DNA of 64,000 nucleotides. Source: Leucoraja erinacea. Its lineage: Eukaryota. The notes beneath the pieces are model-generated. The model ran no database searches, was not told the origin of the DNA, and worked only from the letters and a program-made list of their open reading frames with translations. The DNA lies in the NCBI RefSeq assembly GCF_028641065.1, contig NC_073391.1, positions 23,560,001 through 23,624,000 on the forward strand, given 5' to 3'. Shown piece after piece: positions 2,536 to 60,380 of this stretch. Each line of letters opens with the position of its first letter. The stretch's first letter is position 1. Made by a program: the position numbers and the translations under genes.

Positions 2536-3167
2536 GACACAAAATGCTGAATTCAGCGGGACAGGCAGCTTCTCTGCAGAGAAGGAAGGGGTGATGTTTC
2601 GGGTCGAGACCCTTCTTCAGACTGATGTCAGGGGACTGAGCTAGAAAGAGAAAGAATGTAGTCAGAAAGTGTGCCGAGAATCAAGAGTGTTTTATTGTCA
2701 TATGCCCCAGATAGAACAATGAAATTCTAACTTGCTGCAGCACGACAAAATATGTCAAATCAAACATAGTATGATATGACAAACAGGAGAGAGAGAAAAG
2801 CAAACTAGTGGGTCGAGGTTCTTGTTGAGGTCGGAGTTGGTATGCGCCATAACCAACCTCTCAAAGCACTTCATCACCACGGACGTTAATGCCACTGGTC
2901 GATAGTCGTTGAGGCACATCACCTTACTCTTCTTGGGCACTGGTATTATTGATGTCCTCTTAAAGCAGGTAGGGATCTCAGACCTCAGTAGTACCTCAGA
3001 CTACATTCTATCTCTGTCTCACCCACTCTCCTGACATCAGTCTGAAAAAGGGTCACGACCTGATGTCACCCATTCCTTCTCTCCAGAGATGCTGCCTCTC
3101 CCGCTGAGTTACTCCAGCATTTTGTGTCTATCTTCAATTTAAACCAGCAACTGCTGTTCTTTCCTGC
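2536..3167. mobile_element. Palindromic Penelope-like non-autonomous insertion containing a Rex1 fragment
   Basis: Inverted arms gacacaaaatgctg...cccttcttcagactga (2536-2625) and tcagtctgaaaaagggtcacgacc...cattttgtgtc (3037-3128). Flanked by an 18-bp TSD acataaaatat(a/g)tatgtg at 2518-2535 and 3168-3185. Confidence 0.75.
2680..2990 (-). mobile_element. Rex1/Babar-type LINE fragment (RT N-terminal piece plus 3' tail)
   Basis: [29 protein letters not shown]...NLDPL is the typical Rex1 RT-proximal motif; a Rex1-like 3' end lies at ~2680-2745. Confidence 0.75.
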
Positions 3168-4293
3168 ACATAAAATATGTATGTGTTAGGTCAGGATCAA
3201 TTATCTTTGGCAGTTACTTTTTGTAGCTTTCCAAATATATAGTTCATATAGTTTCTTCACCTATGTTGATTATTTATTTGTGCTCTCTGTGCCTTGACCT
3301 TACAATGGTTAATGGAATTAGGATAAAAAGTCATCAGACACGAAGATAATCAACAGCTAATTTGCTTGAAGATTTCTTTTCCAAGACGGCAATATTTTTG
3401 TTTGAAACAATGAATTTTGAAGATGGACATCTGGCATTCTTCACATGCTGATTTTATTGTGTCGTATGATTGATATTTCCCTGCTTTCAAAAATCCTGAA
3501 ATTAATGATGAACACAATTGTGATCTCATGAATAGCATGCAAAACCCTATGCTCCAACAGTTTTGTCAGCGGGTCATCAATTATGGAGGAAGCATATATT
3601 TTCTAATTAAATATTCAGTAACTTCTCTACCATCAGATGACTAACAAACTGACTGAATTTAGCCTGGGAGTGTTAGCAGAAAATTTACACGGAAAGGACC
3701 CACATGTGCCTCCAATACATGATTTGTTTTATCTACTCGTCTCACAGGTGCAATAGGTGCTAAAGTTTGAAGGATGATAAAATATAACCTGCACAATTTT
3801 AGACTTGAATAATTCTCACCTCCCCCCCCCATCCCAGCCCAACCTGTAAAAGGCAATCCAACTAGCTCCATGAGAACAGCTTTGATGAAGAAACCGCCTC
3901 CGTGAATTTCCTATACATTGCATTGAGTACCTTTATTTTTCCTGTGAGATTTTTCATTCTTGCTTCCCACAAACTACGGATCCTCTCTCCATTCCAGGTT
4001 TGCTGGTGCTTCCATGTGTGTTACGCAACATTTTACTGGATAACCAATAAGTCGTACGAATAAACGAGACACTATAATGAAGACCATGCTACACTTTGTA
4101 TTATTTAGTGTAAAATGCTGAATACTTTCGAACTGCAACTGCACACACAGTAAAAATGCACACTGTAACCGCATACCAAATTTTTATATGGGAATAATTG
4201 TGTTTGTTTTAATCATCTGAGGTTCAATTGGATACATTTGACTTTTTGCCTGATGTTCATGGGCAGCCAATTTAAAAATGTTGGAAAGTCTTA

Positions 4294-4758
4294 CGGGGCT
4301 GTCCCACTGCGGCGACCTAATCTGCGAGTTCAGAAGAGTTTGCCCTTGACTCATACTTGCAGCATGGTCGACACGATGTCCTAGGCGTATTTTTCAACAT
4401 GCTGAAAAATGCCCGCGGGTAAAAAAAAGGTCGCCATGGAAAATATCGATCTTTTTTTTCACTCGTAGGTTTAATCAGGGTAGGTCATAGTAGGTCGGCA
4501 TGTTATTCGTAGGTAATCGAGGGTAGTCGAAGGTAATCGAAGGTAGTCGTAGATAGTCTTCAACATAGTCGAAGGGAGATCGAAGGAGGTCGTCTTCACT
4601 CTCCATTATTCGGTGTCCAATTTTCCCGAAGCTAGTCGAAGCTAGTCGAAGATAGTCTTCGACAGATTCGAAGGAGGTCTTCAACATTACACTTTTTCAA
4701 ACTCTCCTAAACACTTCTAAACTCGCCAATTAGGTCGCCGTAATTAGGGACAGCCCCT
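4294..4758. mobile_element. Harbinger/PIF-like MITE
   Basis: Terminal inverted repeats ggggctgtcccact..cggcgaccta / taggtcgccg..gggacagcccc in a TTA/TAA context; internal ~10-bp repeats (gtagtcgaag). Confidence 0.7.
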
Positions 4759-5149
4759 TAACCATCTCTCCCCTGAAGATGCCTCTCTTCAAAATGTAAA
4801 AAACATTAGCTTATCCTGAAATTAAGGGCCATAGGTTTAAATATTATTTGTGTTGCTTCCACTGCACCCTTTCATCAACGGATGTCAGTACCAACATTAG
4901 GTACCCTTTTCCAACTATTGGCATTCTGATGTCCATAACTTAAGTTCAATCCTGTTACTTTCATTGTTTATTTGTCTTGCGGAACTTAGAAATCCAAAAC
5001 CATTTTATTTTTAGATATCTCTTGTGCGTATTTTGAGTACCACTGTTTCTGCTTTAATGCTTGTTTCCATAAAGTGAGTTAATTAGAATGCAATTGATGA
5101 ATTGGGGAACCCGATTTGTATTATGAATTCAGTATAACATGATTTCGAT

Positions 5150-5851
5150 CGGGAAATGGAAACCCAATTAAAAGTTGGAGTGGACTGGAGTGCAGCAGTC
5201 AATCATGCTGTAGAATCCTAGAAAAGAACCCTACAAAGGGTGGACATTGGATCCATATGTCCGTCCAAATAAAAATGGAGCAATTTGTATTCATCTTCCA
5301 TCCCAGTTCTCTCATCGCAGCCTGAGAGACTGCAACTCCTTAAGTGCTCACCCAAGCACCACGGAAATATGAAGGGAGATTCTACCTCTGCTACCCCTTT
5401 AGGCAGCAATTGCAAGACTCCCATTGCTTTTTGCATGATATTTTCTGACTCATTGATTTGATCTGCAAGAAACTTGTTGGATTCCCGTCACAGCGAGATG
5501 TCTGCCAGGGAATGTTGCTGAGTACAGACTGCGGGAGTACATGCTGGGGGACGCACTGAAGCTTGGTGTAGTCAACGCGATGTCTCTGTGGGGTGGACCA
5601 CTGACGAGGGTCCTTCCCCTGCTGGACATTGAGGGGCACAGTCTGGTGGGAGCAGCACTCAAACAAGGGAAGGGATATCACCCCAGGGGGGCAGCCACTT
5701 GAGTGACAAGGGTGTTTTGTTTTTAAAAAAGGTGCAAACACTACTGAGTATGATACTATTGAATGTGTAGAGAAGGCATGAAGAGTTTTTGCAATTTTTA
5801 TTTTGTATATCTTTTATTTGGAATAAAGTTTATTTTTGAAATAATATAAAA
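5150..5851 (+). mobile_element. Tx1/L1-clade LINE 3' fragment
   Basis: agactgcgggagtacatgctgggggacgcactgaagcttgg encodes RLREYMLGDALKLG, a Tx1-like ORF2 C-terminus, followed by AATAAA (5822) and an A-rich end. A related piece lies at ~36920-37080. Confidence 0.55.
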
Positions 5852-6333
5852 GTTCCCTCTAATCTTTCCATAATTATATTTGTATATTGATTTATTATTG
5901 ACCCCTGCACAGAGACACAGCAATAAAATATTTGTTTAGTGTGTTAACCAGGCAAATCATGCCCCATTGTCACTGAGCTAGTGCTATGGGAAGTCGATCC
6001 TTTAGATTCACCTTCTCTATACCCACCATTTTTTTTAACACACTTTAATTAGTTCTCTCATCAGTCTGTATTTCAAGTAAAACATGCTAGCCAAGTTGGT
6101 CAAAGGAAGCAACTCCTGTCTAAGATGATGTATATATATTTTTGCTCATAGATCAGTGAATAGAGGGAGAGAGGGAAACGGCAGATGGGGCAGTCGGGAC
6201 CAACGATTATAAACTCATGACTGCTGAAAATATGCCAAGTGAATTACTGTACTCGCTTGCTAATGTTGCAGTTCTTAATAAATTAAATGCTGAATGAAGA
6301 TAAATTCTGAGAAAGGTACATGACCTGAAGTGG

Positions 6334-6544
6334 AGATAGACACAAACAGCTGGAGTAACTCAGCAGGACAGGCAGCATCTCTGGAGAGAAGGAATGGGTG
6401 ACGCTTTGGGACGAGACCTTTCTTCAGACTCGCCCTGAAACGTCACCCATTCCTTCTCTCCAGAGATGCTGCCTGTCCTGCTGAGTTACTTCAGCTTTTT
6501 GTGTCTGTCTTCGGTTTAAACCAGCATATGCAGTTCCTCCCTAG
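6334..6544. mobile_element. Palindromic Penelope-like non-autonomous insertion
   Basis: Two inverted arms of ~85 bp; 16-bp TSD acatgacctga(a/g)gtgg at 6318-6333 and 6545-6560. Confidence 0.8.
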
Positions 6545-7340: not shown

Positions 7341-8453
7341 TCTAAAATATGGTTTCTACTTCCACATCTGGTTAAGATAAACTTTTTTTCCCCAATAATA
7401 TTATTGACTATGATTTTCATTATGCTTTAGAACAACTTTTAAACATTGAAATTTAGTTGAGATATTTCTAAATTAAACCTTTTTTTTTCAGTTCCACTAG
7501 AATGTACATGACTTGGTTCCTTATCCCATTATCTTCCTGCACAACGTAACAGATTCAGTTCACTGATGTTGAATCTTCTTGCTTTAATAGATCATGACTT
7601 AAGCTTCAAACATCCAAGCATCATCAACGATCCAAAACTAACCCTGTAAAATGCACTGGTGGCCCTGTGCACTGACCTTTTACCATTTTGTTGAAATTCT
7701 TTTACGTACATTCATAGTGAAACTCTTCTAATACTTTCAATTATAGTTTTCTGTGAATCTGTAGAAGGGTCACCCAAATCGTCACCCACCCATGTTCTCT
7801 GAGATGCTGCATGACCCTTTGAGATACTCCAGCACAACGGACCTTCCTTTCTATCATGGTGTTCTGAGTGCTGGCAAGATAGTCTTAATCCTATCATTGC
7901 CAACTCTTTCCTTGATCTTTGCTGACCCCTATTGTTTAGTGCATCTAATTCCAAATCTTATGTCTCTTCTAAAATCCTTGGATGGCAAAACTTAATTTAA
8001 TTACTGACTTCCTACTTCCAACAGTGGTCAACATGATGTATAATTAACCTCTACCTCGACTGTGCTTGGCCCAGATTTTTAATTTCTGTCTCCTCAGAGT
8101 CTAAAACTCCAACTTGATCCCTTGGTGTTTTTCTTTCCATCTCTAAATTCCTTCCTTTAAATCTACTTTTCAGGGTGAAGTTTCTGGACTTGTATCTGAG
8201 ACATTGATCTGGAGGAATGGGTTTTACATCTATCATGGCAACTGGAGAACTTAGTTTGTGTAACTAAATAAATCTAGAATTTGAAAAAAAAACACATTAG
8301 ATTAATAGATTCATTTTTACAGATGAGATGCAGGCCCAGTTTGGTCTGTTTCCCTCAATATTATATACCTGTCCAAATGTTTTCTGTAAAATATTGGAAT
8401 TGTAACTGCATCTGCCATCTTATCATTTCCCTGTCTTCTGGCTCTCAGTCTGA

Positions 8454-8682
8454 AACATAGAAACATAGAAAATAGGTGTAGGAGTAGGCCATTCGGCCCT
8501 TCGAGCCTGCACCGCCATTCGATATGATCATGGCAGATCATCCAACTCAGTATCCCATCTCTGCCTTCTCTCCATACCCCCTGATCCCTTTAGCCACAAG
8601 GGCCACATCTAACTCCCTCTTAAATATAGCCAATGATCTGGCCTCAACTACCATCTGTGGCAGAAAATTCCACAGATTCATC
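8454..8682 (-). mobile_element. CR1/HER1 LINE 3' end with (catagaaa)n tail
   Basis: Same 3' sequence as other copies at 21000-21340, 32601-32716, 40268-40605 and 44439-44680. Confidence 0.85.
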
Positions 8683-9086
8683 ACTGAAGAAGGGTCTCGA
8701 CCCGGAACGTCACCTATTCCTTTTCTCCAGAGATGCTGTTTGACCCGCTGAGTTACTCCAGCTTTTTCAGTCCATCTTCAGTGTAAACGAGCATCTGCAG
8801 CTCCTTCCTACACTTTCTCTGGTGGGTCATTCCAAATACTTGCCATCTTTTGATTTGAAAAACTCCCTTAGATCCCCTTTGAATCTTTCCCTTTTCACCT
8901 TCAACCTATGCCGTCTAGTTTTAGACTTCCCTACCAAAGTGAAAAAAAGCTTTGCCTCTCTACCATATTTATGCTGCTGATTATTTTCTAAACCTCTAAG
9001 GGGGTCACCATTCAGCCTCCTTGGCTCACGAGGCTCGGAAATGTTGATACCATTTCATTAATAAGTTGGAAGGTTCACGAATGAGT

Positions 9087-9381
9087 GGCACGGTGGCACA
9101 GTTGTAGAGATGCTGCCTTACAATGCTCGAGACCCGGTTTCGATCCTGACTACGGGTGCTGTTCGTACGGAATTTGTACGTTCTCCCCATGATCTCGGTT
9201 TTCTCTGAGATCTTTGGATTCCTCCCACACTTCAAATGCGTGCAGGTTTGTAGGTTAATTGGCTTAGTAAAAATTGTAAATTAGTGTGTGTAGGATGGTG
9301 TTAGTGTGTAGGGATCGCTGGTCAGTGCGACACGGTGGGCCAAATGGCCTGTTTCTGCAGTGTTCTCTAAACTAAACTAAA
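9087..9381 (+). mobile_element. HE1-type tRNA-derived SINE (V-SINE)
   Basis: A-box-like ggcacggtggcacag, B-box-like ggtttcgatcc, V-domain-like gaatttgtacgttctcccc...cctcccacac, and a (taaac)n tail. Confidence 0.85.
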
Positions 9382-10764: not shown

Positions 10765-11849
10765 ATATATACGTATGTGCATATTTGTGTGTATATGTAA
10801 ATAACTGTAGGTATATATGTGTATATATGTATTTATACATGTGTGTATAAATATACACATTTAGTTATGCACAATCACATTTTACATATATACACACAAT
10901 CAGTTTTTTAATTAATTTGTTATGTTCTAATTTGTGAATGAACATAATATAATTATACTGAAGGTTTTACTTTTGCTCCATTGAGTGGTGTGATATTAGG
11001 TAATTACTGGCTGAAACTGTTATGAACTGTTCCTCATTTGTTACATAAGACTGTATATGCAAGGAATACAGTTTATTGGACATACTCAGCAAAGACATGA
11101 CGATATTTAGTTTTTGGTGGACTGCTGTGGTAAACATTTTGATATGCCTCATTTTATTCGTTGAGATGCCTTAATCATGCAAATAATTTATTATTTATAG
11201 TTTTGGCAATGCTTGTTAAATTGGAAATAATGATCCTAACCTGAAACGTCACCCATCCATTTTCTCCAGAGATGCTGCGTGACCTGCTGAGTTACCACAG
11301 CACTTTGCGTCTGTCTTTAATCTAAGACCATGTTGACTTATTGATGAAACTGTCATATTACCTCATTGGCAAAGATAAATATTTTTGTAATTAAAAATCT
11401 TGCACTAGTTCTCACTTCTGAAGAAGATGCCACATTCCCATTATCACAGAATGAGGATCTAACTCAAAGTAATTCACGTGAAAATTTGACTAAATCAATA
11501 ATAAGTGCTGTTATGTATTAAAAATTACAGATTAAGTAAGAAACCCGGGAAATTAGATCATTGCACATTATGAAGTGCGCAAATGGTGTGAGGTTACTGG
11601 AGGAAAAAGATTGGGTTTTAATTGAAAAGTACAATACCATGTTATGTATAGCTCACGTGTGTGCACATATATCATGCATTGTATTGGCTGTGGTCCCCTT
11701 GCAAAGGAACTCAAGATAGAAGATCTGCTGCATAGGGGGAAAGAAGGGGGTTACGTTGCATGGCTAGTAATAGCATCTGACAGCAGTGAGTCAAGATATT
11801 ATCAAGAGATTTCATTTTGGAGAAATATTACATTTAACTTTTAAGATTC

Positions 11850-12120
11850 AGGGGCAGCGCAGTGTTGGAGTTGCTGCCTTACAGTGCCAGGGACCTGGGT
11901 TCAATCCTGACTAGGGGTGCTTTTTGTACGGAGTTTGTACATTCTCCCTGTGACCACATGGGTTTTCATCAGGTGCTCCGATCCGGTTTCCTCACACACT
12001 CCAAAGACTTACAGGATTGTAGGTTAATTGGCTTTGGTTAAATTGTAAATTGTCCCTAGTGTGTGGAACACTGCTAGTGCACGTGGATCACTCGTTAGCA
12101 CGGACTTGTTGGGCTGATAG
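11850..12120 (+). mobile_element. HE1-type SINE
   Basis: Same head and central domain as the copy at 9087-9381. Confidence 0.8.
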
Positions 12121-12678: not shown

Positions 12679-12791
12679 CACGTAATCCCTCATCGTAACT
12701 CCTCATAAAATACAGATCAAACTTCAAACTGGTAAGTTCTCGTTTAATCTTACTATTTTACTTCGGAGTCACGTGAGTGACTTCGTGAAGA
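12679..12791. repeat. DIRS internal complementary region (ICR)
   Basis: 12679-12757 is the exact reverse complement of 12458-12536 (79 bp). 12755-12791 is the exact reverse complement of 17519-17555 (37 bp). The two halves overlap at ATT. Confidence 0.95.
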
Positions 12792-23380: not shown

Positions 23381-24125
23381 TGGTAGAGCTGCTTCCTCAC
23401 ACTGCCAGAGACCTAGGTTCAATTGTAACCCTGGGTGCTGTCTGTGTGGATTTTGCACAATCTCCCTGAGTGACCGCATGAGTTTCCTCTCACATCCCAA
23501 AGACGGCAGGCTTGTAGGTTAATTGGCCTCTGTAAGTTGCCCCCTAGTTTGGAGGGAATGGGATGACACAGAACTCGTGCGAACGGGTGATCTTTCGTTG
23601 ACATGGATTCAGTTGGATGAGGGACCTGTTTCCACGCTGTATCTTGAAACTAATTAACCTAAAAAATACCATAGTAGATATTTTGTGGAGAACTGGGGGC
23701 AAAAGATCACACGGCACAAAGATTTCAAGACTTTGGGAGGGGCAGCACAGTGGCAAAGTAGTAGAGTTGTTGCCTTAAAGTGCCAGAGACCCGGTGTCGA
23801 TCCTGACCACGGGTGCTGTCTGCGTAGAGTTTGTACGCTCTCCCTGTGAGCGGGTATGTTTTCTCAGGGTGCTTCTCCCACATTCCAAAGACTTGCAGGT
23901 TGATAGGTTAATTGGCTCCTTTAAATTGCTCCTTTTGTGTAAAATGCAAAACTGAGATAAGGGATATGAAAATGATCTTGACCTGACACGTCATCCATTC
24001 TTTGTATCCAGAGATGCTGTCAGACCCGCTGAGCTACTCCAGCTTTTTGTGTCTATCTACGGGTGAAATAGATCAGCGTGGGCTTGGTGGGCCGAAGAGC
24101 TTGTTTTCTTGCTGTATTTCTAACC
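23381..24125 (+). mobile_element. Two tandem HE1-type SINEs with a ~90-bp spacer; the second contains a Penelope-like arm (~23975-24060)
   Basis: SINE heads at ~23381 and ~23740 and tails cctgtttcc...gctgtat. Confidence 0.75.
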
Positions 24126-25220
24126 TACTACTAAAGACAGAACATCCCTGAAGAGTTTCAACATTGTTACATACAACTGGGAACAACAAACATGGGAGAA
24201 GTGCTGCTTGCTGCTTGCAAAGTGAACCTTCAAAGCAGGAACCATTGATGTTACAGTAACCCTATTGCTCTGGCGCCTGTTTGAAAGGAACCTTTGAGCC
24301 CAGATTGGTCTAATTATCCACATCCTAACACAACACAATATTCTATAAACTGTATGTCATGCACTTACTCAAGAATGAATGACAAACAACAGCACAAATA
24401 ATATAACCTCTTGGATGTAGTCTCAGTGAAACACAATTCCATTCTGTGAAATAGGGTTTTAAATGCTTGATGCAATCAAGATCTTAAGCATAAAACTTTA
24501 CTGTGTTAGGTATAATAAGTTGAGAAAGATGTCATTTTCCAAAACAACGGCACAGAAATTTAGGTGGTTATGATCAGGAGAGATTATTGTGATTCATTAC
24601 ATGAAATAGATATCTTGTAGCTAACTTAGGTAAATAAGCAAAGAAATAATTGGAAATTAGTTCAATTTAAATGAAATTTAAATCAAATTTGATACAGAAA
24701 TGATTGGGAAAATTTGAGGAGAATGGGGTTGAGAGGGAACGATAGATCAGCTATGATTGAATGGTGGAGTAGACTTGATGGGTCGAATGGCCAAATGTTG
24801 CACTGATAACATGATAGAGACAGAGAATTAGGACGAAGGAAAGCACAAGATATTTTGTTTCAGGGCAGTTAGCTTAAGAAAATTGTTTTAACTGTTCCTT
24901 TTATTACCCAGAGAGAAAGAGACATCGCAACAGCATAATTTTTTGACATAAAAGAGGGTTAATGATATTAAATTCCAGCTCTAACTTCCTGCACTGCACT
25001 TAATATATAAAACACCTACTCAGCATTTTTTTTAAAAACTTGCAGGAAGGTTCAGGGTGGACTCAGAGCAACCAAACATTTGTGCTGATTTGCAAAATCT
25101 TTTTTTTGAAGCAAATTACCAGATGATATTTGTGCCAATAATTTTTCTGAGTTATTTTGCCCAATAAACACAGGGCCTGTTTATGGTAAAATGGTACCTT
25201 TAATGGTAAAAACATTTTAT

Positions 25221-25431
25221 GTAAGAAAGAACTGCAGATGCTGGTTTAATTAAAGGGTGGACACAAAATGCCGGAGTAATTCAGCGGGATATGCAACATC
25301 TCTGGAGAGAAGGAATGAGTGACGTTTCGGGTCGAGACCCTTCTTGGTCTTGCCCCGAAACGTCACCCATTCCTTCTCTCCAGACATGCTGCCTGTCCCG
25401 CTGAGTTACTCCAACATTTTGTGTCTACCTT
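25221..25431. mobile_element. Palindromic Penelope-like non-autonomous insertion
   Basis: Inverted arms around gacccttcttggtcttgccccgaaacgtc; imperfect acatttt(tt)at TSD. Confidence 0.75.
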
Positions 25432-31520: not shown

Positions 31521-32799
31521 TAACTCGTCCAAAAGACATGTACATGTTTGCACATTTACTCTTTCTAATTTGTACCTGAACCTTTATTTGTTGGTGAGGC
31601 ACATTTGTTCTCCCACTGGCTCAGCACAATCAAGAACACTCAGCAATTAATCTTTAGGCTTTGAGAGGTGAACAGATTTTGGCAAAATTGGAAGCTCTCA
31701 GATGTAAAGGGGAAAGTGGACCAGGAGTTTAGTTCCTGTTTCATTAATTAACTTAGGATTTGTGTGTGTGGATGATGGTTAAGAACACTGCCGGCTTTTG
31801 CTTTGAAATCCTTATCCACTTTTGTTCTTTGTCAATGTTAAATGACCTGACTGTTTTTTATGGTCATTAATAAGTGAAATGCAATTAGCATCAATGCCAA
31901 CACTTTCTGTCAATTAAAAGTCTAAAAAAAAAGTTCCTTTAAAAAATTAACACAGATGCTTTCGTGGATGTGTGCCTTGAAATTATTTTAATGTTTGAAC
32001 TGTTATAACTTTTTTGCCAAAGGTGGACACAAAATGCTGGAGTAACTCAATGTGTCAGACAGCACCTCTGGAGAAAATAGATAGGAGATGTTTTGGGTTG
32101 AGACGCACCTTCAGATTTTAATGCCTGAAATTTTAGTAAGGGCATAATGATCTTCCAAAACAACAGACACACAATTTCATTTGAAACCATTAAATGTTCA
32201 TCCAGTGAACATCCAGGGAAATAAAACCTAGCAATGTTTTATTGGCTAAATTGACTTTTTTGATTGATTGAAAGACACAGTATGGAAACAGGCCCTTCAG
32301 CCTAGTGTCCACGCCACCCATTGATCACTCGTTCAAACTTGAACTGTGTAATCCTATTTGCTGTTTTTACTCCATTAAAAATGATAATCCCCTTTACTTC
32401 GTGGGTGTAGTGTTCTTCAGATTCATAACTGGCCTGAATTCCGTTTTGCATGGTGAACCAACTCCTGGATTGTTTGGTTATGCTAAATTCTTTCTTCAGT
32501 TGTTTTATGTAGCCAAAAATAAATTGATTTACAACCGTATCTTAATGACTTGAAGGCTGATATCAGAAAGCTTATCTGAAAAATTGGATGTAACTTTCAT
32601 ATAGAAACATAGAAAATAGGTGCAGGAGGAGGCCATTCGGCCCTTCGAGCCAGCACCGCCATTCATTATGATCATGGCTGATCGTCCCCAATCAATACCC
32701 CGTGCCTGCCTTCTCCAAAATAACAGTACAAACATTTACCAAATTTCAGCATGTCTGGATGTGCTTTATGATCAGCATGGATCTTTAGAATAATATTTC

Positions 32800-34286
32800 G
32801 ATTTCTCAGACGGTGCAGCATAAATTTGCGAGTTTCCTTCACTTTGCTGATGATTGAGAGAGTAAACCAATGGAGCAGTAATTAGCAAGGTTGTATTTGA
32901 GCTGCTTAATACAGATGGGACATAGTTGGGCACAGTGGGGCAGCGGGTAGAGCTGCTGCCTCACAGTGTCAAGACATTGATTGTAACCACCTGTTTGATT
33001 GTAACTTCCTGTGCTATCTGTGTTCTCCCTGAGTGATCGCGTCGGTTTCCTCTCACATCCCAAAGACGCCAGGCTTGTATGTTAATTGGCCCTGTAAATT
33101 GTCCCCGAGTTTGTCGGGTATGGGATGACATAGAACTAGTGTGAACAGGTGATCTATCGTTGGCGTGGACTCAATAGGCTGAAAGGCCTGTTTCCATCCT
33201 GTATCTTTAAACTGATTAACCTAAAAAATACTAAAGCAGCGACTTTGTGGTGAACTGAGGGCAAAAGATCACATGGCACAAAGTTTCAACGACTTTGGGA
33301 GGGGTAGAACATTAATGCAGCAGTAGAGTTGCTGACTAAAGGGCCTGTCCCACTTGCGTGTCCTTGGCACGCAAATTACGTTGAGCCGAGACAGTCCCGC
33401 GAAGGTCGGGCGCGTTTCCATGCATATACACAGCCGTCTGGAGCACGTGACGTCATTTGAAGATGGAGACAAAGCTGGAGTAACTCAGCGGGACCGGCAG
33501 CATCTCTGGAGAGAAGCAATGGGTGAATTTTCGTGTCGAGACTCTTCAGTCTGAAACGTCACCCATTGCTTCTCTCCAGAGATGCTGCCGGTCCCGTTGA
33601 GTTACTCCTGCATTTTGTGTATCTTCAATTTTCTTGGCCCTGCTCTGGAGGTAGAAGTGGGGGCGGATCCGGACCGCAAAGGCTGTGAGCCTCAGGCCGA
33701 GTTCGGCGATCGTTTGCCTGCTTCTGCTGCTGTTGAAGATGAGACATTGCATCGCGCCAGGGTCTTAGGCCTGTCCCACTTTGCCCTTCAGTTCCGCGAC
33801 AGGCCGTTGGCGCGCGACGACTTTGTTCACTACAAAAATTTCGGAGCCCTGTGCGATGTTGGGCACAACTACATACCCTTCCGCGCTTCTAAGTGGGACC
33901 GGCCCCGCGCGGCCATACGATGCCCATGCGTCTCAACCACGAGGTCGCGTAATTTGCGAGCCAAGGACACGTAAGTGGGACAGGCCCTTCACAGGGATAG
34001 AGATGGGTTCGATCCTGACTCTGGGTTCTGTCTGGATGATGTTTGTACGTTCTCCCTGTGACCACATGGGTTTTCTCCGGGTGTTCTGATTTCCTCCCAC
34101 CATGCCAAAGATATGCAGAATTGTAGGTTTAATTGGCTTGTTTAAATTGTTTTGATTTCTGAGTTGGTGCAGCGTAAAATTGCAAGTTTCCTTCACGTTG
34201 CTGATGATTGAGAGAGTAAACCGATGGAGCAGTAATTAGCAAGATTGGATTCGAGCTGCTCATTACAGATGGGACATAGTTGGGCA
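32800..34286 (+). repeat. 133-bp direct repeats (32800-32932, 34154-34286) enclosing a copy of the 23381-23930 SINE-spacer-SINE block
   Basis: Both repeats read gatttct...tttccttcac.ttgctgatgattgagagagtaaacc.atggagcagtaattagcaag...acagatgggacatagttgggca. Confidence 0.85.
33340..33988. mobile_element. Harbinger/PIF-like MITE inserted in a SINE head
   Basis: ~40-bp TIRs agggcctgtcccacttgcgtgtccttggcacgcaaattacg / cgtaatttgcgagccaaggacacgtaagtgggacaggccct; 3-bp flanks taa/tca; CpG-rich. Confidence 0.8.
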
Positions 34287-34967: not shown

Positions 34968-35856
34968 CAGTGCCCTCCATAATGTTTGGACGCCACAATT
35001 TGAGATTTGTAGTAGAACAAAAAATCACATGTGGTTAAAGTGCACATTGTCTGATTTCAATAAAGGCCATTTTTATACATTTTGGTTTCACCATGTAGAA
35101 ATTACAGCAGTGTTTATACATAGTCCCTCCATTTCAGGGCACCATATTGTTTGGGGCACAGCAATGTCATGTAAATGAAAGTAGTCATGTTTAGTATTTT
35201 GTTGCATATCCTTTGATTACTTGAAGTTTGCGATTCATGGACATCACCAGTTGCTGCGTGTCTTCTCTGGTGAAGCTCTGCCAGGCCTTTATCGCAGACA
35301 TCTTTAGCCTATGCTTGTTTTGGAGGGTAGTCCTCTTCAGCAGTGTATAAAAGGCATGCTCAATTGGGTTCAGATCGGGTGATTGACTTGGCCACTCAAG
35401 AATTTACCATTTTTTTAGCTTTGAAAAATTCCTTTGTTGCTTTAACAGTATGTTTGGGAACATTGTCTTGTTGTAGAATGAACCGCCAGCCAATGCGTTT
35501 TGAGCCATTTGTTTGAACTTGAGCAGATAGGATATGTCTATACACTTCAGAATTCATTATGTTACTACCATCAGCAGTTGTATCGTCAATGAAGATAAGT
35601 GAGCCAGTACCTTCAGCAGCCATACATGCCCAGGCCAGAACACCCCCACCACCGTGTTTCACATGTGGTGGTATGCTTTGGATCTTGGGCAGTTGCTTCT
35701 CACCTCCATACCTTGCTCTTGCCATCACTCTGATATAAGTTAATCTTTGTCTCATCTGTCCACAAGACCTTTTTCCAGAACTGCGGTTGTTCTTTTAAGT
35801 ACTTCTTGGCAAACTGTTACCTGGCAATCCTATTTTTGCAGCTAACCAGTGGTTTG
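34968..35856 (-). mobile_element. Tc1-family transposon, truncated (one TIR plus transposase catalytic region)
   Basis: TIR cagtgccctccataatgtttgg with an inner repeat near 35140-35160; KHGGGGVLAWACMAAEGTG...LQQDNVPKHT and [15 protein letters not shown] motifs. Confidence 0.85.
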
Positions 35857-36234
35857 ATTTAAACCAGCATCTGCAGTTCTTTCCTACCCAGCCGTTGATG
35901 TATTATGGGGGCGGAGCTTGACATTGACATTTGGAAAAACCCTGCACTGTGCCAGGCTGGGAACCAGTGTATTGGCAGACAAGTTCCTCCAAGAATGAAT
36001 GTGCTCCATAGGCAAGGGACTGCACACTTGTCAGTCACAATTGTAATGTAGGGCAGAACTTGGTGCATAGAGTTGATTGTCACGTTGAGTATGCTTTTGC
36101 CCTTTTACTGCTGTGGTAATATAAGGAAAATAATTTATTCTGCAGTCACCTTTGCAGTTGTCATGTGAAAAGAATTTTAGATTTTGGGAGAATTTGACAT
36201 TTATTAATAGTTTGCTTTTGAATCTTGCCCGCAG

Positions 36235-42544: not shown

Positions 42545-42685
42545 GGTAGACAAATGTCTGAAGAAGGGTTTTAGCCCGAAACGTTGCCTATTTCCTTCGC
42601 TCCATAGATGCTGCCGCACCCGCTGAGTTTCTCCAGCACTATTGTCTACCTTCGATTTTCCAGCATCTGCAGTTCCTTCTTGAAG
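42545..42685 (+). mobile_element. Penelope-like non-autonomous insertion (second subfamily)
   Basis: 14-bp TSD agtaaaaagtaata at 42531-42544 and 42686-42699; core ctgaagaagggttttagcccgaaacgttg; only a ~10-bp inverted stub at the left. Confidence 0.75.
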
Positions 42686-45594: not shown

Positions 45595-45782
45595 CTGAAG
45601 GATCTGCAGATGCTGGAAAATCGAAGGTAGTCAAAAATGCTGGAGAAACTCAGCGGGTGAGGCAGCATCTATGGAGCGAAGGAAATAGGCAATGTTTCGG
45701 ATTGAGGCCCTTCTTCAGAACTCTATTTCCTTCGCTCCATAGATGCTGCCTCACCTGCTGAGTTTCTCCGGCATTTTTGCCT
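45595..45782. mobile_element. Palindromic Penelope-like insertion (second subfamily)
   Basis: Inverted arms; 14-bp TSD attttcagcacaat at 45581-45594 and 45783-45796. Confidence 0.8.
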
Positions 45783-46267
45783 ATTTTCAGCACAATAGTG
45801 CGTTAAAATAAAATAAAGCTTATTCCATACATTTTCATTCTAAAGTTAAAATGTTTGAATACTTTCAGATTTATCTAGTTAATAAAATAATTGATGCATA
45901 AATGTGAGTGAGAAAAATATTATATTTTCTTTATTTGTAGGAAAGGGTTTCGACCCGAAACATCACCCATTCCTTCTCTCTAGAGATGCTGCTTATCCCG
46001 CTGAGTTACTCCAGCAATTTGTGTCTACCATATTTTCTTTATGGGCTAACTGTATAAGTAGTTCTGCCATGTTGCAGTGGTCATGTTCCTTATAATAATA
46101 ACATTGTATCAATGGGAAAGTGGAGTGATAGTGAGGGTCAGCTTGGCATTAGCTTCAGTTCACCTGCAAGATTTTCAAAAATAAAGGTTTTTTCTAACAG
46201 GAATGGGTTTATTTGTTGTGACTGCAAGGTCCTAATGCTAAAGGGTGCATGTTGAGCGAGAAAACCA

Positions 46268-46985
46268 AGTGCTGGCAGAAGACAGCAGGTCAGGTAGCAG
46301 GTCAGCTGGGAAATAGGCAGGTGACATTTTGGGTGGAGATCGTTCTTCAGATTGATTCAATATGGGGAAGAATGTTGGAAAAGTGCGGTGGAGTTGGGGC
46401 AAAGTCTGGCAAGTGATGGTTGGTTGCAGGTGGGGGAGTGATTGGGAAACGGGTGGAGTAAATGGCCAAAGCTGGAAGTGAAAAGGAGCCAAACGTTTGA
46501 CAGATTAGGAATGTGAAAGAGTGGAAGGCTGGGGGAAGAGATATGGGTGTGAGGGGAAAGAGGGGTGAACCCCATTTTTACTTTTTTTCCCCCCCCCCCC
46601 TCCTTCCTGGCCCCGCATACCCATATCCCTCTCTCCCACGCTTCTTCTTTCCTTATCTGACATCCTTTTCTCTCCTTGTTACTTTTGGCATTTGTCCCTT
46701 ACTCCACCCATCTGCTAACCCCACTTTCCTACCGCCTCCATCTACCTTCTCTGTGCCCCACCTGGACTCACATCCATTTCTTCCTTCCCCCCCTTTTGTG
46801 AACCAACATCTGCAGTTCCTTGTTTCTATTCTCTAGTTATCGTTTATCAGGCTTTGTCCCACCCACACCTCTCTTTTTCATCGTCCTTCCCCCCCACCCC
46901 CAACAATCAGTCAGATGAAGGGTTCTGAGCCGAAACATCGTGTGTCCATTTTCATTCACAGATGCTGCCTGACCTTCTGAGTTCA
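46268..46985. mobile_element. Longer, older Penelope-like palindromic element
   Basis: Outer inverted arms (46268-46360, 46905-46985) with a purine-rich left half and a pyrimidine-rich right half. Confidence 0.55.
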
Positions 46986-48419
46986 TGAGATCATAAGTGA
47001 TAGTAGAATTAGGCCATGTGGTCCATCAAGTCTACTCTGCCATTCAATCATGGCTGATCTATCTGTCGCTCTTATCCCCAATCTCCTGCCTTCTCCCCAT
47101 AACCTCTGACACCCGTACTATACAAGATTAGCACATCGTTTTTTTTCCCTCACAATGCCAACATTTACATTTGTATCTCCAAAGACCATATATTACATTG
47201 TTTAACAGAGCATCATTGCACAAGTATCAATAGAAATGATTGCTTGTCAACTTCAATAGCTGCCTCCGGTGAAAGTTGCAACTGTGTTCGTAAGAGACAA
47301 TGATGTTTGTTTACTTTTGAGAGATTAAATCTTTTTCTTCCAACACTGAATTGTTTCCAAAATGGTTTGAGGTTTGTCAATTTTCAAAGTAACTTTCAAA
47401 AGGTTCTCTAGTTCATGATTAAAATTACGATACAACCAATTGCCAGTGCAATAAAAATAGTCTTCCCTATTCATCAATCCTATATGTGCTATGGAAACAT
47501 GCACTGTAGCAGCACTACCTTCAATTAATTTCAAAGAGACACAAGAAACTGCAGATGCTGTATTCTTGAGCAAAATGCCAAGTGCTGGAGGAACTCAGCA
47601 GGTCAGGCAGTATCAGACTGAAGAAAGGTCCCAACCTGAATCGTCGTCTGTGCATTCCCACCACAAATGCTGCATGACCCACTGAGTTCTTCCAGCACTT
47701 TGTTATTTGCTTGTAATTACTTTCAACTGCAATTGTAGAAAATATCCATTCTACTTTTTCTGAAAAGTTAATCCCTTAGTTTTTAAAGTCTGTGTATATT
47801 CCTAACTTTGTTTTTCAGGAGCTCTTGGTCTAATTTGTTTCTAATACTGTTTGATTCTGTGTTCAAAGCAGCACTGGCATTGGATGTGGGTTCAACTTGA
47901 CATACATCAAAGCAGCAGGAAGAATTGATCTAACTGGCAATATTTGTTAGTATATCCCACCCAAAGGACCATTTATTTTTTGATAATTCATGTCCTAGTT
48001 TGTCTAATTATACAGTTGAACTGTCATCATATTACTTGGAGTAACTTGAAAGATGCACTTTTCTTTACTGAGAATTTTCAGCTAAAATTCAACATTGTTT
48101 ATAAAAAGTGCTACAATTTGTCCCAACCTCTAGCTAGGTGAATGCAGGTTGTCGCAAAACAAATTAGATCATGGTTTTTGATACAACGCCACCAAATGCT
48201 GGAAACACTCAGGAGATCAGGAAGCATTTGTGGAAAGCACACATTGCTGATATTTTAGTTCATCAGAACATGAGAAAATAGCAGGAGTAGGCAGCCGGGC
48301 CTCTCCATCTGCCCTTGTCATTAATATGATTGTGGCTGATCTATGCTGGTTTGAATTCCTTTTCTTTAAAGTGCAGAAGAATGAGGGGACATCTCACTTA
48401 CTACATACTTAAAGCCCAA

Positions 48420-50456: not shown

Positions 50457-52013
50457 CAGTGCATTCAGAAAGTATTCAGACCCCTTCACTCTTCCACATT
50501 CTGTTACGTTACAGCCTTATTCTAAAATGAATTTAATTATTTTTTTAATCATCAATCAACACACAACACCCCATAATAAAAAAGCAAAAACAGGTGTTTA
50601 GAAATTTTTGCAGATTAATTAAAAAGAAACAACTGAAATATCACATTTACATAATTACAAAGTACATTCAGACCCTTTACTCAGTACCTTGTTGAGGCAC
50701 CTTTGGCAGCGATTACAGCCTTGGGTCTTCGTGGGTATGACGTTACAAGCGTGACATACCTGTGTTTGGGTAATTTCTCCCATTCTTCTCTGCCGATCCT
50801 CTCAAGCTCTGTCAGGTTGGATGGGGAGCGTCAATGCACAGCTATTTTCAGGTCCCTCCAGACATGTTCAATTGGGTTCAAGTCCGGGCTCTGGCTGGGC
50901 CACTCAAGGACATTCACAGACTTGTCACCAAGCCACTCCAGTGTTGTTTTAGCTGTGTGCTTAGGGTCATTGTCCTGTTCGAAGGTGAACTCCATTCCAG
51001 TCTGAGGTCCAGAACGCTCTGGAGCAGGTTTTCATAAAGGATCTCTCTGTACTTTGCTCCGTTCATCTTTTCCTCGTTCCTGACTATTCTCCCAGTTCCT
51101 GCCGCTGAAAAACATCCCCACAGCATGATGCTGCCACCACCATTCTTCACCGTATTGGTCGGGCGATGAGCGGTGCCAAAGAGTTCAATCTTGTTTTCAT
51201 CAGACCAGAGAATCATGTTTCTCATGGTCTGAGATTCCTTTAGGTGCCTTTTGGCTGAGGGCTGTCATGTGCATTTTCCGGAGGAGTGGCTTCTGTCTGG
51301 CCACTGTACCATAAAGGCCTGAATGGTGGAGTGCTGCAGATATGGTTGTCCTTCTGGAAGGTTCTCCCATCTCCACAGAGGAATTCTGGAGCTCTGTCAG
51401 AGTGACATTAGGTTCTTGGTCACCTCCCTAACCAAGGCCCTTCTCCCCTGATTGCTCAGTTTGGCTGGGCGGCCAGCTCTATGAAGAGTCCTGGTGGTTC
51501 CAAAGTTCTTCCATTTAAGAATGACAGAGGCCACTGTGCTCTTCGAGACCTGCAATGCTGCAGAAATTGTTTTACACCCTTCCCCAGATCTGAGTCTCGG
51601 AGGTCTATGGACAATTCCTTCGTCTTCATGGATTGCTTTTTGCTCTGACATGCTGTCAACTGTGGGACCTTATACAGACATGTGTGTCCAAATCATGCCC
51701 AATCAATTTAATTTACCACTGGTGGACTCCAATCTAGTTGCAGAAATATCTCAAGGGTAATCAATGAAAACAGGGTGAACCTAAGGTCAATTTTGAGTGT
51801 CATAGCAAAGGGTCTGAATACTTATGTAAATGTAATATTTTAGTTATTTTGTTCATTACATTGCAAACATTTCTTAACACCTATTTTCGCTTTTTCATTC
51901 TGGGGTATTGTTTCTAGATTGATGATAAAAAAATTAATCCATTTTAAAATAAGGCAGTAACATAACAAAATGTGAAAAAAGTGAAGGGATCTGACTACTT
52001 TCTGAATGCACTG
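50457..52013 (-). mobile_element. Tc1-family transposon (IR/DR type), both TIRs present, degraded transposase
   Basis: TA|cagtgcattcagaaagtattcagacccc ... gatctgactactttctgaatgcactg|TA; ~220-bp TIRs with inner direct repeats; [38 protein letters not shown] and [13 protein letters not shown] motifs (DD34E type) with deletions and frameshifts. Confidence 0.93.
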
Positions 52014-56492: not shown

Positions 56493-56650
56493 CTGGGACG
56501 ATATCTGGGGAAGAAGTACCTATTATCTCAAAAATGAACATTAAAGAGTACAGAGATGGATTCTCCTATGAAAAATTTAATTTTCACAACAATCCAAATA
56601 TCACATTCTACGTATATGTTAGTAACTTCACTTGGCCTATCAAAATACAG
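56493..56650 (+). CDS. ATRNL1: Attractin-like 1 internal exon, 158 bp (juxtamembrane ectodomain)
   Basis: Boundaries tctactttgcAG| and |GTGAGT; (A)GTISGEEVPIISKMNIKEYRDGFSYEKFNFHNNPNITFYVYVSNFTWPIKIQ; in frame with the preceding exons. Confidence 0.96.
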
Positions 56651-58715
56651 GTGAGTGCTCTGGGAGGAGGTAACATTATATACATTTAATATCTATCCTA
56701 AATGCAAGTGAAATCATGTATTCTCTTAATACTGATATAATATCATATATACTGTAAATCATAATTTTGTTGTTATAGCAGTGAGGAATTGTATTTTATT
56801 CCTCTTGATTTACAAGATGTTATAAATCAGAGTGCAAGGTCATTACATTTTTTATTGACACAAATTGCTGCACGTTGAGAAGTTATCAAGGCAAGTTTCA
56901 GTTCAATAGAAACTCTTCCATTTATAAACTGGTCACAAACCCAGTTGTCTCTTTCATCATATGTTCAGTAGGTTTTGTGTTCCTGGTGATTGAATAGAGT
57001 TAAGTGTTGAGATGACTTGTTAATATAGACCCTCTTACATTGAGGAACTTGTTTTGAAATACAGGAAGATCTATGGTGAAAATTTGAATAATGAGAGAGG
57101 TATTGACATTGATTTTAGCAATACTTGCAGATCATGTTTTTGTAATTTGCATCATTAAACTGCCCAAAAGTAATATGAACTGTGTGAACATATGTGAAAT
57201 GCAATTTAATTACTGTTTTATTACTTCATAAAATCTAGTTATGACCTGACATAACTTAATTAAATGTTTGGGGAATTGAATGATCTCACCAATTGCCACT
57301 TTATTAATAACCTATCACATGTTTTTAATTCATTTGTTATTGTGGTTTAAAATAATTACAAAGCAATATTTGGTGTTGGTGGGGGAGGGGGGGGGGTGGT
57401 CTCTGTTAAAAGGTATAATTGTAATGTAAGTTCTGCATGTTTTAAGATTCTCTTTATTTTTGCTCGGTCTCTCAAACTAACTTGAAATCATATTTCATAA
57501 ATCAGTTTAGAAGAATGAAACTAATGTGGTGTAAAAAGCCAAGACACAGGGCTTTGTTTTGACTTTCATATCTTTGATATTTAAGAAGCAATATCTCTGA
57601 CACTTAAGACGCAGTCGTAGCCCCCAACTATTACTTTTGAGTGAGATTTTAAATCTGTCATAAATGGAGAATTTTTCCTTAACTTTTAAAAATAATTAAC
57701 AATTAAAATCTGTTGCTGTTGCATTGTCCAGTGGACTGAATTTTTACTACATTTACTTACTTTCCTTAGTAAATGAATTAAAAATTATGAGCTGTACAAC
57801 ACAGCAATAAGCCCTTACGTGGACCTATATATTTCACACCAGTGAAAATGGTAGGAACTCCAGGTTGGTTTACTCTGTAGAGGCAGTTGGTAAAAGGAAT
57901 TTCACACTTACTCATTTTAACCTTGGAATGTTTAAGGTTCGTACTGAGAGCAGGGTGGACATATTTAACTCGCCAGTTTGATACAGAAGTCAAAGGCAAG
58001 GTGTTTTGTCGGATAGATAACTGTCATGGATGACTTATTAGAGAGCAGCCTGACAGTGTGATATTGGCTTCCCATTGGTCTGAATACAACTCCACCTGAT
58101 GATTGTGAAGAATTAATGACTGTGTGTCATAATAATAAGAAAAGAAAAGTTGATCAAACAGCTTTGCCTCCTTTAAAAAAATATTGGAAAACATTGCATT
58201 TATGAAAGCTGAACAAGGCCTTAAGTAAATGGTAAAGAATGTCCAAAGTTTCAGATTGTCAGTTTACTGGTTTTCAATTTAAGCAAAAGCAACAGCAAGT
58301 TGTGGAGTGGCACTGGAGATATAACAATCCAAATTATCTTCTGTTATTTGGTAATTGCTGAAACATTTTGTTCCATAGGACTTATATTTATGTAAATTCA
58401 TTCTCCATTGAAATAACATTCTTGTGCTGAGTGAGTAGATTGAAGGTTCGGTCTTGTCTTAGGAATTGAACATAGAAGCAGTCTGACATTTCAGGGCACT
58501 TCCAAATGTTGTGGTGTTAGTTCATCAGATTAAGTTTGTGGGATATTTGTAGATCAAGTGACTTTATTTTAGAAATCTTATGCAGTCCCTCAGAATCAGG
58601 ATGCCTTATTTTTAACTCTGGGTCTGACATGACTGATGAGGCCATTGTTGGAACTGTATACTCTGTCACAGTTAAGGCAGCTGGTGCTTGACAGAACAGG
58701 TGGGTGAGTACTTGG

Positions 58716-59148
58716 TAGGGTTGCCAACTGTCCTATTTCTGCTCGGGTCGAGGGGACTGTCAGGTTGGACCGCCACGTTCGGCCATGCCTCACCCGTCCC
58801 AATGTAATACAGCCCTAGGGGTGCAGCAGCAGCTCCTCACCCATGCCCCCGTCGGTCGGCAGGCTGGCCAGCTGTCCGACCTTCGGAACTTCGCTTACCA
58901 TCGACACCACCACCCCTCCTTTTCATGGCCGATCATCGGTTCATGAGTTGGATAGGGTGCCGGACTTTGTGCCCGGGTCAAAACTCTTCACCTGGCAAGC
59001 CGGCTGGGCTTTGTGTGCAGTCCAGCACCTGGGCCAACTCATCATTCACGCAGCCACAACCGAGTCTGTCAACAAATTGCTGTAGGGAATTTGTCCCTTA
59101 TTTTGACCTTTTATCCCTTATTTGGGAGTGAGAAAGTTGGCAACCCTA
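58716..59148. mobile_element. hAT-family MITE
   Basis: 14-bp TIR TAGGGTTGCCAACT / AGTTGGCAACCCTA; 8-bp TSD gtacttgg / gtagttgg (7/8). Confidence 0.9.
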
Positions 59149-59440
59149 GTAGTTGGTGAGGAACACCTTCCTCCGTTTATGCCTGGCTTATGTGCACTCT
59201 TGATGCATGCTTTCAAAGTATTCCATTGTCGAGTGGTCATGGGCACGGCATTCCTACATGACGGTCGGGATGTCATACTTGTTCAAGAATGCTTTAAGCC
59301 CATCTGTAAATCTGTTTTTTCCTCTGTCCTCTTGGTAGTCTCGTAATAATGTGTTCAACTATGAATTGCCCAGAATCAAGTTGATATTTCACCCTCAACT
59401 GTGGCCTATAAATTATTTTGCTGTGAACAATTTGAGATTT

Positions 59441-59740
59441 TAGACCTTAGAGATACAGCACTGAAAACAGGTCCTTCGGCCCGCTGAGCCCACGCTGACC
59501 AGTGATCACCCCATACACTAGCACTATCTTGCACACTAGGGACAATTTCTAATTTACAGAAGCCAATTTACCTACAAACCTTTACATCTTTGAAGTATGG
59601 GAGGAAACCGGAGCACCCGGAGAAAACCCACGCGCTCATAGGGAGAAGGTCCAACCTCTGTACAGATTGTGGTCAGGATGGAACCCGTGTCTCTGTCTCT
59701 GTAAGGCAACAGCTGTACCACTGCGCCATTATGCTGCCCC
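59441..59740 (-). mobile_element. HE1-type SINE
   Basis: Reverse-complement match to the other copies. Confidence 0.8.
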
Positions 59741-60174
59741 TAATTTTCAGTGTCCTGTTTACATACAGAATAAAAGCTGTTATTTTTGAAAGTAGGTAAA
59801 TGTATGTGTTGCCCATACAAACAAGAAATCTGGTACAGAGCCGTGCAGATCTGTGATGATTCCCTCTGACACAAAATAGCATCAAGCTTCTTTTGTGATT
59901 GGCTGCTGCCTCAGAAGTGATGATCTGGTTAGTAATGCAGCCAGAGGGTTACTTGCCATTTGTTGTTTGTATCATGTACTGAAAGTGCTCTTCAATCAAC
60001 TAGATGTTCAATGAATGAACCCTGTATCCATGTGTCTAAATATATTACCTCTAATATTCAAATGCACATTGAAAATGTAGACTGATAAAGAATATTTTAA
60101 CCTTACTAAAATAGGGGGGCTCCAGTTGTAGTGTTGGTGTTCTCAGTATTTAATGAATGTTTTAAGCATGGAAA

Positions 60175-60380
60175 TAAATGCTGGAGAAACTCAGTGGGTG
60201 AGGCAGCAACTATGGCGAAAAGGAGTAGGTGACGTTTCGGGTCGAGACCCTTCTTCAGAAAAAGGGTCCCGACCCAAAACGTCGCCTACTCCCTTTCTCC
60301 AAAATGCTGCCTCACCCGCTGAGTTTCTCCAGCATTTTTTGTCTACTTTCGATTTTTCCAGCATCTGCAGTTCCTTCTTA
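60175..60380. mobile_element. Palindromic Penelope-like insertion with an intact hammerhead-like core on the - strand
   Basis: Minus 60258-60231 reads CTGAAGA-A-GGGTC-TC-GACCC-GAAA-CGTC; inverted arms. Confidence 0.75.

Follow-up and report, generated by a model that had tools for sequence, protein, structure and literature searches.

Penelope-like elements (PLEs) characteristically carry an inverted, 5′-truncated copy and a one-sided tail of 30–40 bp (PMC8557442, PMC8969392), and rotifer examples of this architecture are bounded by target-site duplications (TSDs) of 8–10 bp (PMC3846280). Here we analyzed an abundant short repeat in a 64,000-nt stretch of the little skate Leucoraja erinacea genome (NC_073391.1, positions 23,560,001 to 23,624,000; hereafter, the window). 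The repeat matches a PLE end on every feature that could be judged, namely, the inverted truncated copy, the tail at one end, and the variable AT-rich TSD. We interpret its copies as old, dead, and heavily 5′-truncated 3′ ends (pseudo-long terminal repeats, pLTRs) of an endonuclease-containing (EN+) Penelope-like retrotransposon, or of a non-autonomous short RNA using its enzyme, with a probability of about 0.8; a PLE origin as such, judged from sequence features, is very probable. A sequence-only reading of the window had likewise preferred PLEs to MITEs (miniature inverted-repeat transposable elements), and this preference is upheld by support of a purely structural kind: head-to-head arms, long variable AT-rich TSDs, a one-sided tail of 30–37 nt, and a PLE-like core.

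Arms, tails, and target sites

A profile built from 12 arms was searched against the window with nhmmer (cut-off E<1e-5), the reversed window serving as the control. As a result, 24 arms were identified at 16 loci, totaling 2,413 bases (3.8% of the window); the reversed window gave nothing significant (one match at E=6.9). The repeat is present at all 15 positions named in the sequence-only reading, and two tail-only pieces were detected besides the arms, at 35853 and 46794. Ten of the 16 loci are head-to-head pairs, two of which (E10 and E12) have as their second arm a stub of 8–12 nt recognized by inspection only, and the other six are single arms. The copies are arranged as follows.

2536..3167: E1, two-armed, tail-less arm 2536-2666 (-) and tailed arm 2996-3167 (+); 18 bp TSD
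2593..2620 (-): minimal type I hammerhead core in E1, a descriptor match with native upstream sequence
6334..6544: E2, two-armed, tail-less arm (-) reaching the core, tailed arm (+) beginning within stem II; 16 bp TSD
7758..7836 (+): single decayed arm, begins at the core; TSD not found
8684..8814 (+): single full arm with tail, begins at the first base of the core, adjoins a long interspersed element (LINE) 3′ fragment; TSD not found
11227..11330 (+): one arm only, decayed, with a degenerate 5′ strand of the core
23970..24063 (+): one arm only, decayed, the 5′ strand of its core likewise degenerate
25219..25431: E7, two-armed, tailed arm (-) and tail-less arm (+); weak TSD of 7 bp
31994..32114 (-): single arm with degenerate tail, ends at the first base of the core; 9 bp TSD from a wider search without a null
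33454..33633: E9, two-armed, junction exactly TCAG-T-CTGA, small deletions in both cores; no tail, no TSD
35853..35886 (+): tail-only fragment (E=8e-4)
42545..42685: E10, subfamily B, 12-nt inverted tail-less stub and full tailed arm (+); 14 bp TSD
42558-42585 (+): core of E10, satisfies the strict hammerhead descriptor
45595..45782: E11, two-armed, subfamily B, tailed arm (-) reaching the core; 14 bp TSD
45935..46029: E12, inverted stub of 8–9 nt matching the tail end, and tail-less arm (+); 13 bp TSD
46255..46986: E13, old head-to-head pair, extra tail piece at 46794-46822, right arm interrupted by another repeat
47535..47714: E14, older two-armed copy, tailed arm (-) and tail-less arm (+), junction TCAG-A-CTGA; 12 bp TSD
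48188..48261 (-): very decayed single arm (E=5e-7)
60164..60382: E16, two-armed, subfamily B, tail-less arm (-) and tailed arm (+); 12 bp TSD

Several copies retain particular details. Upstream of the core, both arms of E1 continue for ~45 nt and enter a polypyrimidine tract, and its minus-strand core has a 2-bp stem I and a decayed CpG in mini stem III. The E1 arms are separated by an internally deleted LINE fragment (2667-2995, minus strand), which comprises a piece coding for the reverse transcriptase (RT) N-terminus together with the 3′ end. The fragment lacks a separate TSD, and the PLE insertion may have captured it, as opposed to its having been inserted later. The arm at 8684 starts where the LINE 3′ fragment 8457-8685 breaks off, the two sharing an ACT/CT junction. 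The tail-less plus-strand arm of E11 begins just beyond the cleavage site, the upstream sequence of E13 is pyrimidine-rich over ~220–320 nt on either side, and no arm other than the tail-less minus-strand one of E16 has its core and stems II/III (60258-60231) fully intact.

The divergence between paired arms is 8–14% for the six younger pairs, compared with 22 and 45% for the two old ones, which indicates that the copies are old and inactive. Two subfamilies with different arm sequences had been proposed. One of them, subfamily B (42556, 45597, 45725, 60168, and 60255), forms a clade in the tree of arms (support 98/96); the remaining arms are poorly resolved, and older, more diverged copies are also present and take a basal position. 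The two arms of E2 group together (92/83), as do those of E9 (91/86).

Read in the hammerhead sense, an arm consists of the core (CTGAAGA-A, stem II GGGTC/GACCC, GAAA-CG-TC), a segment of ~50 nt with a short GCTG...CAGC helix, a first CCAGCA motif, and an optional extension containing a second CCAGCA. The outer ends fall in two zones, 9–17 nt past the first CCAGCA or 16–21 nt past the second. The extension of 30–37 nt constitutes a tail, which is present on exactly one arm in eight of the nine assessable two-armed insertions, on neither arm in E9, and on both arms in none; E13 was left out of this count, its right arm being cut by another repeat. Such a bias toward one tail (at least 8 of 9) has p=0.02 if each arm chose freely, and the proportion is 6/7 without the two stub-armed copies. 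The tail, which is borne by either arm and had escaped the sequence-only reading, supports a PLE origin. The second arm had been described as variably truncated; this is true of its inner end, whereas its outer end is confined to the narrow zone 9–17 nt past the first CCAGCA. The CCAGCA half of the GCTG...CAGC helix recurs in the tail. Both outer end zones lie 9–21 nt past a CCAGCA, so this motif may position the reverse transcriptase. The helix itself (alignment columns 64–67 with 88–91), located downstream of the hammerhead, is conserved as well as the core.

Short, non-coding, high-copy palindromes, of which four are predicted to form strong hairpins (-119 to -153 kcal/mol), could also represent a MITE or another non-autonomous DNA transposon whose terminal inverted repeats resemble a hammerhead by chance, and remnants of Tc1-type transposases do occur within the window. 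This explanation is hardly credible, since the ends are never equivalent (offset of 30–37 nt), the long arm can be either one, TSD lengths range over 7–18 bp, each copy has a different inner junction, and some loci consist of single arms or include stubs. Neither equivalent terminal inverted repeats nor a fixed TSD length was found in the window.

TSDs were sought with a slack of 8 nt around boundaries set by eye, a procedure that favors finding them, and compared with a null of 240 mismatched boundary pairs, none of which reached score 9 and seven of which reached score 7. TSDs of 18, 16, 14, 14, 13, 12, and 12 bp were obtained at seven of the 16 loci and one of 7 bp at another, the remaining eight being at background. 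The four duplications on which the argument for target-primed insertion had originally been built are real: 18 bp with one mismatch (2518-2535/3168-3185), 16 bp with one mismatch (6318-6333/6545-6560), and two exact ones of 14 bp (42531-42544/42686-42699 and 45581-45594/45783-45796). A duplication of 9 bp at 32017 appears only with a slack of 40 nt, without a null, and this locus is among the eight at background. The AT content of the TSDs is 79% vs. 60% for the window. Long variable TSDs are also compatible with LINE machinery, and LINE fragments are abundant in the window; the repeat might thus be the 3′ end of a short interspersed element (SINE) or a LINE with L1-type twin-priming inversions, the hammerhead match being fortuitous. 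We regard this as very improbable: neither poly(A) nor tandem repeats form a tail at the 3′ end, a shared head is absent, and the two arms are copies of one 3′ sequence, in contrast to L1 inversions, which consist of pieces that are adjacent and do not overlap.

The hammerhead-like core

Minimal hammerheads of PLEs follow the consensus CUGANGAH / G-stem II-C / GAAAN-palindrome-NUH, and several PLE rows in the supplement read CUGAAGAA...GAAA C G U C (PMC4209133). The arrangement previously recognized in the skate repeat (CUGANGA, stem II, GAAA, a palindromic mini stem III, and GUC) is the majority sequence of the 24-arm alignment and fits this consensus, as does the extra base after A9, which occurs in the published PLE minimal hammerhead. 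The earlier caveat about stem I is correct as to its length (2 bp), and the rows for D. virilis, Culex, and Oikopleura provide PLE precedents for a 2-bp stem I (PMC4209133). A strict hammerhead descriptor is satisfied by 2 of the 24 arms (42558+ and 2620-) and had no matches in 100 shuffles, which argues against the chance resemblance assumed by a SINE or LINE origin. With CpG columns excluded, conservation is 0.935 in the core vs. 0.847 elsewhere in the arm (permutation p=0.006; p=0.046 for the 3′ core alone). This rise is modest and may be affected by bias at the ends of the alignment.

Several results speak against ribozyme function in the present copies. Covariation in stem II, which had been named as a check, and in stem I was absent among 20 arms (score of 0.074 vs. 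0.078 shuffled), in a test whose power is low because few masters gave rise to the copies and their decay is neutral. With RNAalifold, the alignment yielded none of the hammerhead stems, only a 4-bp helix downstream that lacks covariation. When the window was scanned against Rfam, 46 matches with E of up to 5 were returned, none of them to a hammerhead model and none at the gathering score; only sub-threshold miRNA matches were obtained. In the three best copies, the predicted pairing is 0.00 for stem I and 0.01–0.12 for stem II, which argues against function; the copies are thus predicted to be unable to fold into the ribozyme.

Cleavage as a dimer, as had been suggested by analogy with other PLE hammerheads, is not applicable to the present copies. 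The two cores lie on opposite strands and a head-to-head transcript is predicted to fold into one long hairpin, so no dimer is possible in cis. Furthermore, 22 of the 24 arms run uncut across the cleavage site, which implies that the template RNA was either uncleaved or religated; a self-cleaved RNA as the template was rejected on the same ground, and religated circular RNA may have been the alternative to uncleaved RNA. We propose that the hammerhead was inherited from a master element and is decayed and probably inactive in the copies studied here.

Insertion route and origin of the repeat

The inner end of the longer arm proved unexpectedly regular. In 9 of the 16 loci, homology stops 0–3 nt upstream of the first C of the core, at a TCAG-T-CTGA mini-palindrome and not at the cleavage site. 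Among the other loci, two stop 3–5 nt inside the core, two have a core 5′ strand too decayed to say, two (E1 and E13) have both arms running far upstream, and one is very decayed. The native upstream sequence, as seen in E1 and E13, is a polypyrimidine tract that ends in ATCAG-T-CTGA and thus contains the self-complementary TCAG-N-CTGA; the junctions of E9 and E14 lie exactly at the center of the latter. TCAG-T-CTGA overlaps the CUGA strand of the ribozyme and also constitutes a splice-acceptor-like polypyrimidine-CAG junction. An upstream UCAG able to pair with CUGA was counted by eye in ~6 of ~44 PLE hammerhead rows (PMC4209133), which are too few and too related to generalise. Proteins in databases that contain the translated arm provide independent but indirect support for this end point, being stop-free spurious open reading frames (ORFs) without DNA context: 23 fit a pattern for the first core codon, one of them falsely (host sequence), and among the other 22 only two retain the native two upstream residues, whereas several continue straight into the inverted arm.

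The protein of a Poseidon-type PLE from Anolis carolinensis (PAc) cuts and extends both strands of AT-rich DNA in vitro, its two RNA start sites bound the tail, its RNA is uncleaved, and insertion is unaffected in its hammerhead mutants (PMC11167929). By analogy, twin priming is the route that we somewhat favor for the skate repeat. The GIY-YIG domain would nick both strands of AT-rich DNA ~7–18 nt apart, and each nicked 3′ end would prime reverse transcription on uncleaved pLTR RNA, one start site lying at the tail end and the other 30–37 nt further in. Both cDNAs would run toward the 5′ side of the RNA, and the hammerhead's 5′ edge is where the longer one would usually stop. The two would then be joined via microhomology of 1–3 nt or via the self-complementary TCAG-N-CTGA, yielding a head-to-head palindrome with one tail. 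The paired use of two start sites on one target and the joining step are what we infer here, whereas cutting and extension of both strands and the two start sites have been shown in vitro for the anole element. The stop of the long cDNA at the core edge may have several causes, since a mini-palindrome, the 5′ end of the RNA, and a splice-acceptor-like CAG predict the same position; the intron of the D. virilis PLE ends at helix I (PMC4209133). Palindromic copies acting as masters were rejected, since inner junctions differ in every copy and outer ends are fixed.

Alternatively, the palindrome could have arisen from a PLE by fold-back, in which a single cDNA, on arriving at TCAG-N-CTGA, would fold back on itself and be copied outward as far as the tail-less point, and variable junctions would result from later one-sided central deletions. 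Perfect palindromes are known to lose their centers, and the exact joining of E9 and E14 at the center of the mini-palindrome is explained by fold-back as well as by twin priming. Self-priming has been proposed for palindromes at inverted PLE junctions (PMC3846280). On the other hand, all that remains of the second arm is its outermost 12 nt in E10 and its outermost 8–9 nt in E12, the E12 stub represents the tail end although its long arm is tail-less, and under fold-back an additional signal would be required for stopping at the tail boundary. Stubs that consist solely of outermost sequence are expected from priming at the second nick, and fold-back appears possible but doubtful to us.

Another candidate origin is the dispersal of monomers of a non-LTR retrozyme, i.e., a tandem hammerhead repeat of ~200–350 nt that moves via circular RNA with PLE enzymes. 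Retrozymes derived from PLE pLTRs have been reported in the one chondrichthyan sampled (bioRxiv 10.64898/2026.07.22.740005), and at 46794-46986 a tail piece is followed by another core ~80 nt on. This tail piece, upstream of the core at 46912, is the only hint of a partial tandem of direct pLTRs; it has no preceding arm, no head-to-tail pair of cores was found among the 16 loci of the window, and the upstream sequences of E1 and E13 differ. We thus consider a retrozyme origin unlikely.

Returning to twin priming on a PLE template, a more specific and quite tentative extension is that, in integration, the hammerhead region may act as an end-and-join signal and not as a cutter. The RNA would be primed twice, always at different start sites, which would leave exactly one tail, and the cDNA would end at TCAG-T-CTGA. 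In the literature searched, we found no paper stating this reading, the hammerhead-edge end point, or a strict one-tail pattern, the latter two of which are drawn here from 16 loci.

Several observations weigh against assigning the repeat to a PLE. Seven of the 16 loci lack any TSD, and E9 has neither tail nor TSD. Only one two-sided change was seen in the four pairs of stem II, the whole structure is not better than shuffles (313/500), and stem II is disrupted by a sequence common to the copies at 11227 and 23970. Other blocks of 10 columns reach a conservation of 0.90–0.91, and local alignment inflates end columns. Among the 257 window ORFs of at least 62 aa and not of low complexity, Pfam revealed no GIY-YIG domain or PLE-type RT, an absence expected from truncated copies; the RT matches that were obtained belong to a DIRS-like element and LINE pieces. 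A scan for motifs of PLE proteins found no remnants near the arms, no PLE RT or GIY-YIG was present in 53 of the 55 arm-containing database proteins (the two named host proteins being left out), and the arm was not matched in one supplementary file of PMC8557442.

Further searches produced no autonomous partner. Profile searches with the translated arm gave 8 and 54 matches without any PLE domain, only spurious or exonised ORFs, and the core had no exact match among 185,579 prokaryotic genomes, which were searched for host-contaminated contigs. The arm was also considered as the start of a PLE ORF, one frame being open in two subfamilies; this idea was rejected as unsupported, given the lack of codon periodicity (p of 0.18–0.70 in ten tests) and of a PLE domain in the profile matches. 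No description of the repeat in sharks or skates was found in the literature covered, in which subscription papers were largely outside the scope; four arm motifs had no occurrence in the paper texts searched, and Penelope is not mentioned in the main text of the little skate genome paper as far as available. The family may already be in Repbase or Dfam, or in the tables of bioRxiv 10.64898/2026.07.22.740005 for its one chondrichthyan.

Genomic setting and comparison with known systems

The window represents vertebrate intronic DNA, where the repeat arms lie in introns of an attractin-family gene.

36240-36356 and 56495-56656 (+): attractin-family exons with Pfam GBD_ATRN matches, ~20 kb apart

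Other elements in the window are diverse. An apparently intact DIRS-like tyrosine-recombinase retrotransposon (12450-17556, minus strand) has a gag-like ORF of 437 aa that matches nothing in Pfam, an RT ORF of 704 aa that also matches a methyltransferase weakly, and an ORF of 327 aa from the phage integrase family; it contains a 98% inverted repeat (12453-12536/12679-12762), and its far end (17521-17556) is complementary to ~12757-12790. Decayed remnants of Tc1/mariner transposases (DDE_3, HTH_Tnp_Tc3_2, and HTH_SB) are found at 35194-35794 and 50834-51669 on the minus strand. Young LINE 3′ fragments, 85–93% alike, lie at 8457-8685, 32601-32716, 40264-40620, 44443-44671, and 21092-21347, and a tandem minisatellite with ~8 units of 31 bp at 19997-20244. 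A second abundant family of short repeats (9100-9280, 11861-12049, 23379-23933, 27944-28127, 33969-34086, and 60593-60651) may resemble the elasmobranch HE1 SINE.

For annotation, a repeat that occupies so large a share of the window and mimics a MITE or a microRNA hairpin has been drawn into gene models. The translated arm has 88% identity over 98% of the query to a stretch within a Leucoraja erinacea protein from NCBI. Two NCBI gene models contain it, an NmrA-like protein (Leucoraja erinacea) and a phospholipase C beta-like protein, where its presence is probably an annotation error or exonisation. The copy number would amount to some hundreds of thousands if the window is typical, as extrapolated from one locus per 4 kb and the reported assembly size of 2.2 Gb.

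The family itself is a known kind of element, and its hammerhead-edge end point is unusually regular. Both the formation of inverted PLE ends and the role of the hammerhead are stated as open in PMC11167929 and PMC8557442. The skate family being abundant, short, and TSD-bounded, the one-tail rule and the end point can be checked computationally on thousands of insertions. If the end-and-join reading is true, it would imply mass production of MITE-like palindromes of roughly 200 bp, some 10^5 per genome provided that the window is typical, and would document statistically the second-strand step, as yet unvalidated, by which Penelope transposes.

In fish, coelacanth, and frog genomes, PLE ends carrying minimal hammerheads are ordinary and number in the thousands; in coelacanth and Xenopus, thousands of solo or opposite-strand copies per genome were described (PMC4209133). 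No shark or skate row is present in the supplement file of PMC4209133 that was examined. The skate cores share with metazoan PLE minimal type I hammerheads the CUGAAGA with one extra base, the G-C first pair of stem II, GAAA-CG-UC, and a U-rich upstream sequence, and differ in stem II (4–5 bp with a loop of 2–4 nt), which is shorter than in most rows, and in a stem I of 2 bp (PMC4209133). Animal non-LTR retrozymes are similarly non-coding, have a type I hammerhead, are related to PLEs, and occur in cartilaginous fish (PMC7229834; bioRxiv 10.64898/2026.07.22.740005); they are tandem repeats, whereas the skate copies are dispersed and inverted.

The closest resemblance is to EN+ PLEs (Penelope/Poseidon and Neptune; PMC8557442, PMC3846280), with which the skate repeat shares the head-to-head inverted copy, the tail of 30–40 bp at one end, a variable TSD, AT-rich targets, a hammerhead near the 3′ end, and a palindrome at inverted junctions. 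In contrast to these elements, the skate copies are only 95–220 bp long and have no ORF, which a clade assignment would need, and their TSDs are mostly 12–18 bp, i.e., longer than the 8–10 bp of rotifer PLEs (PMC3846280). The PAc ORF starts at stem II, whereas the skate arm has no start codon there and no codon periodicity. As in PAc, two end points bound the tail roughly 70–100 nt past the cleavage site, and the template was apparently uncleaved (PMC11167929).

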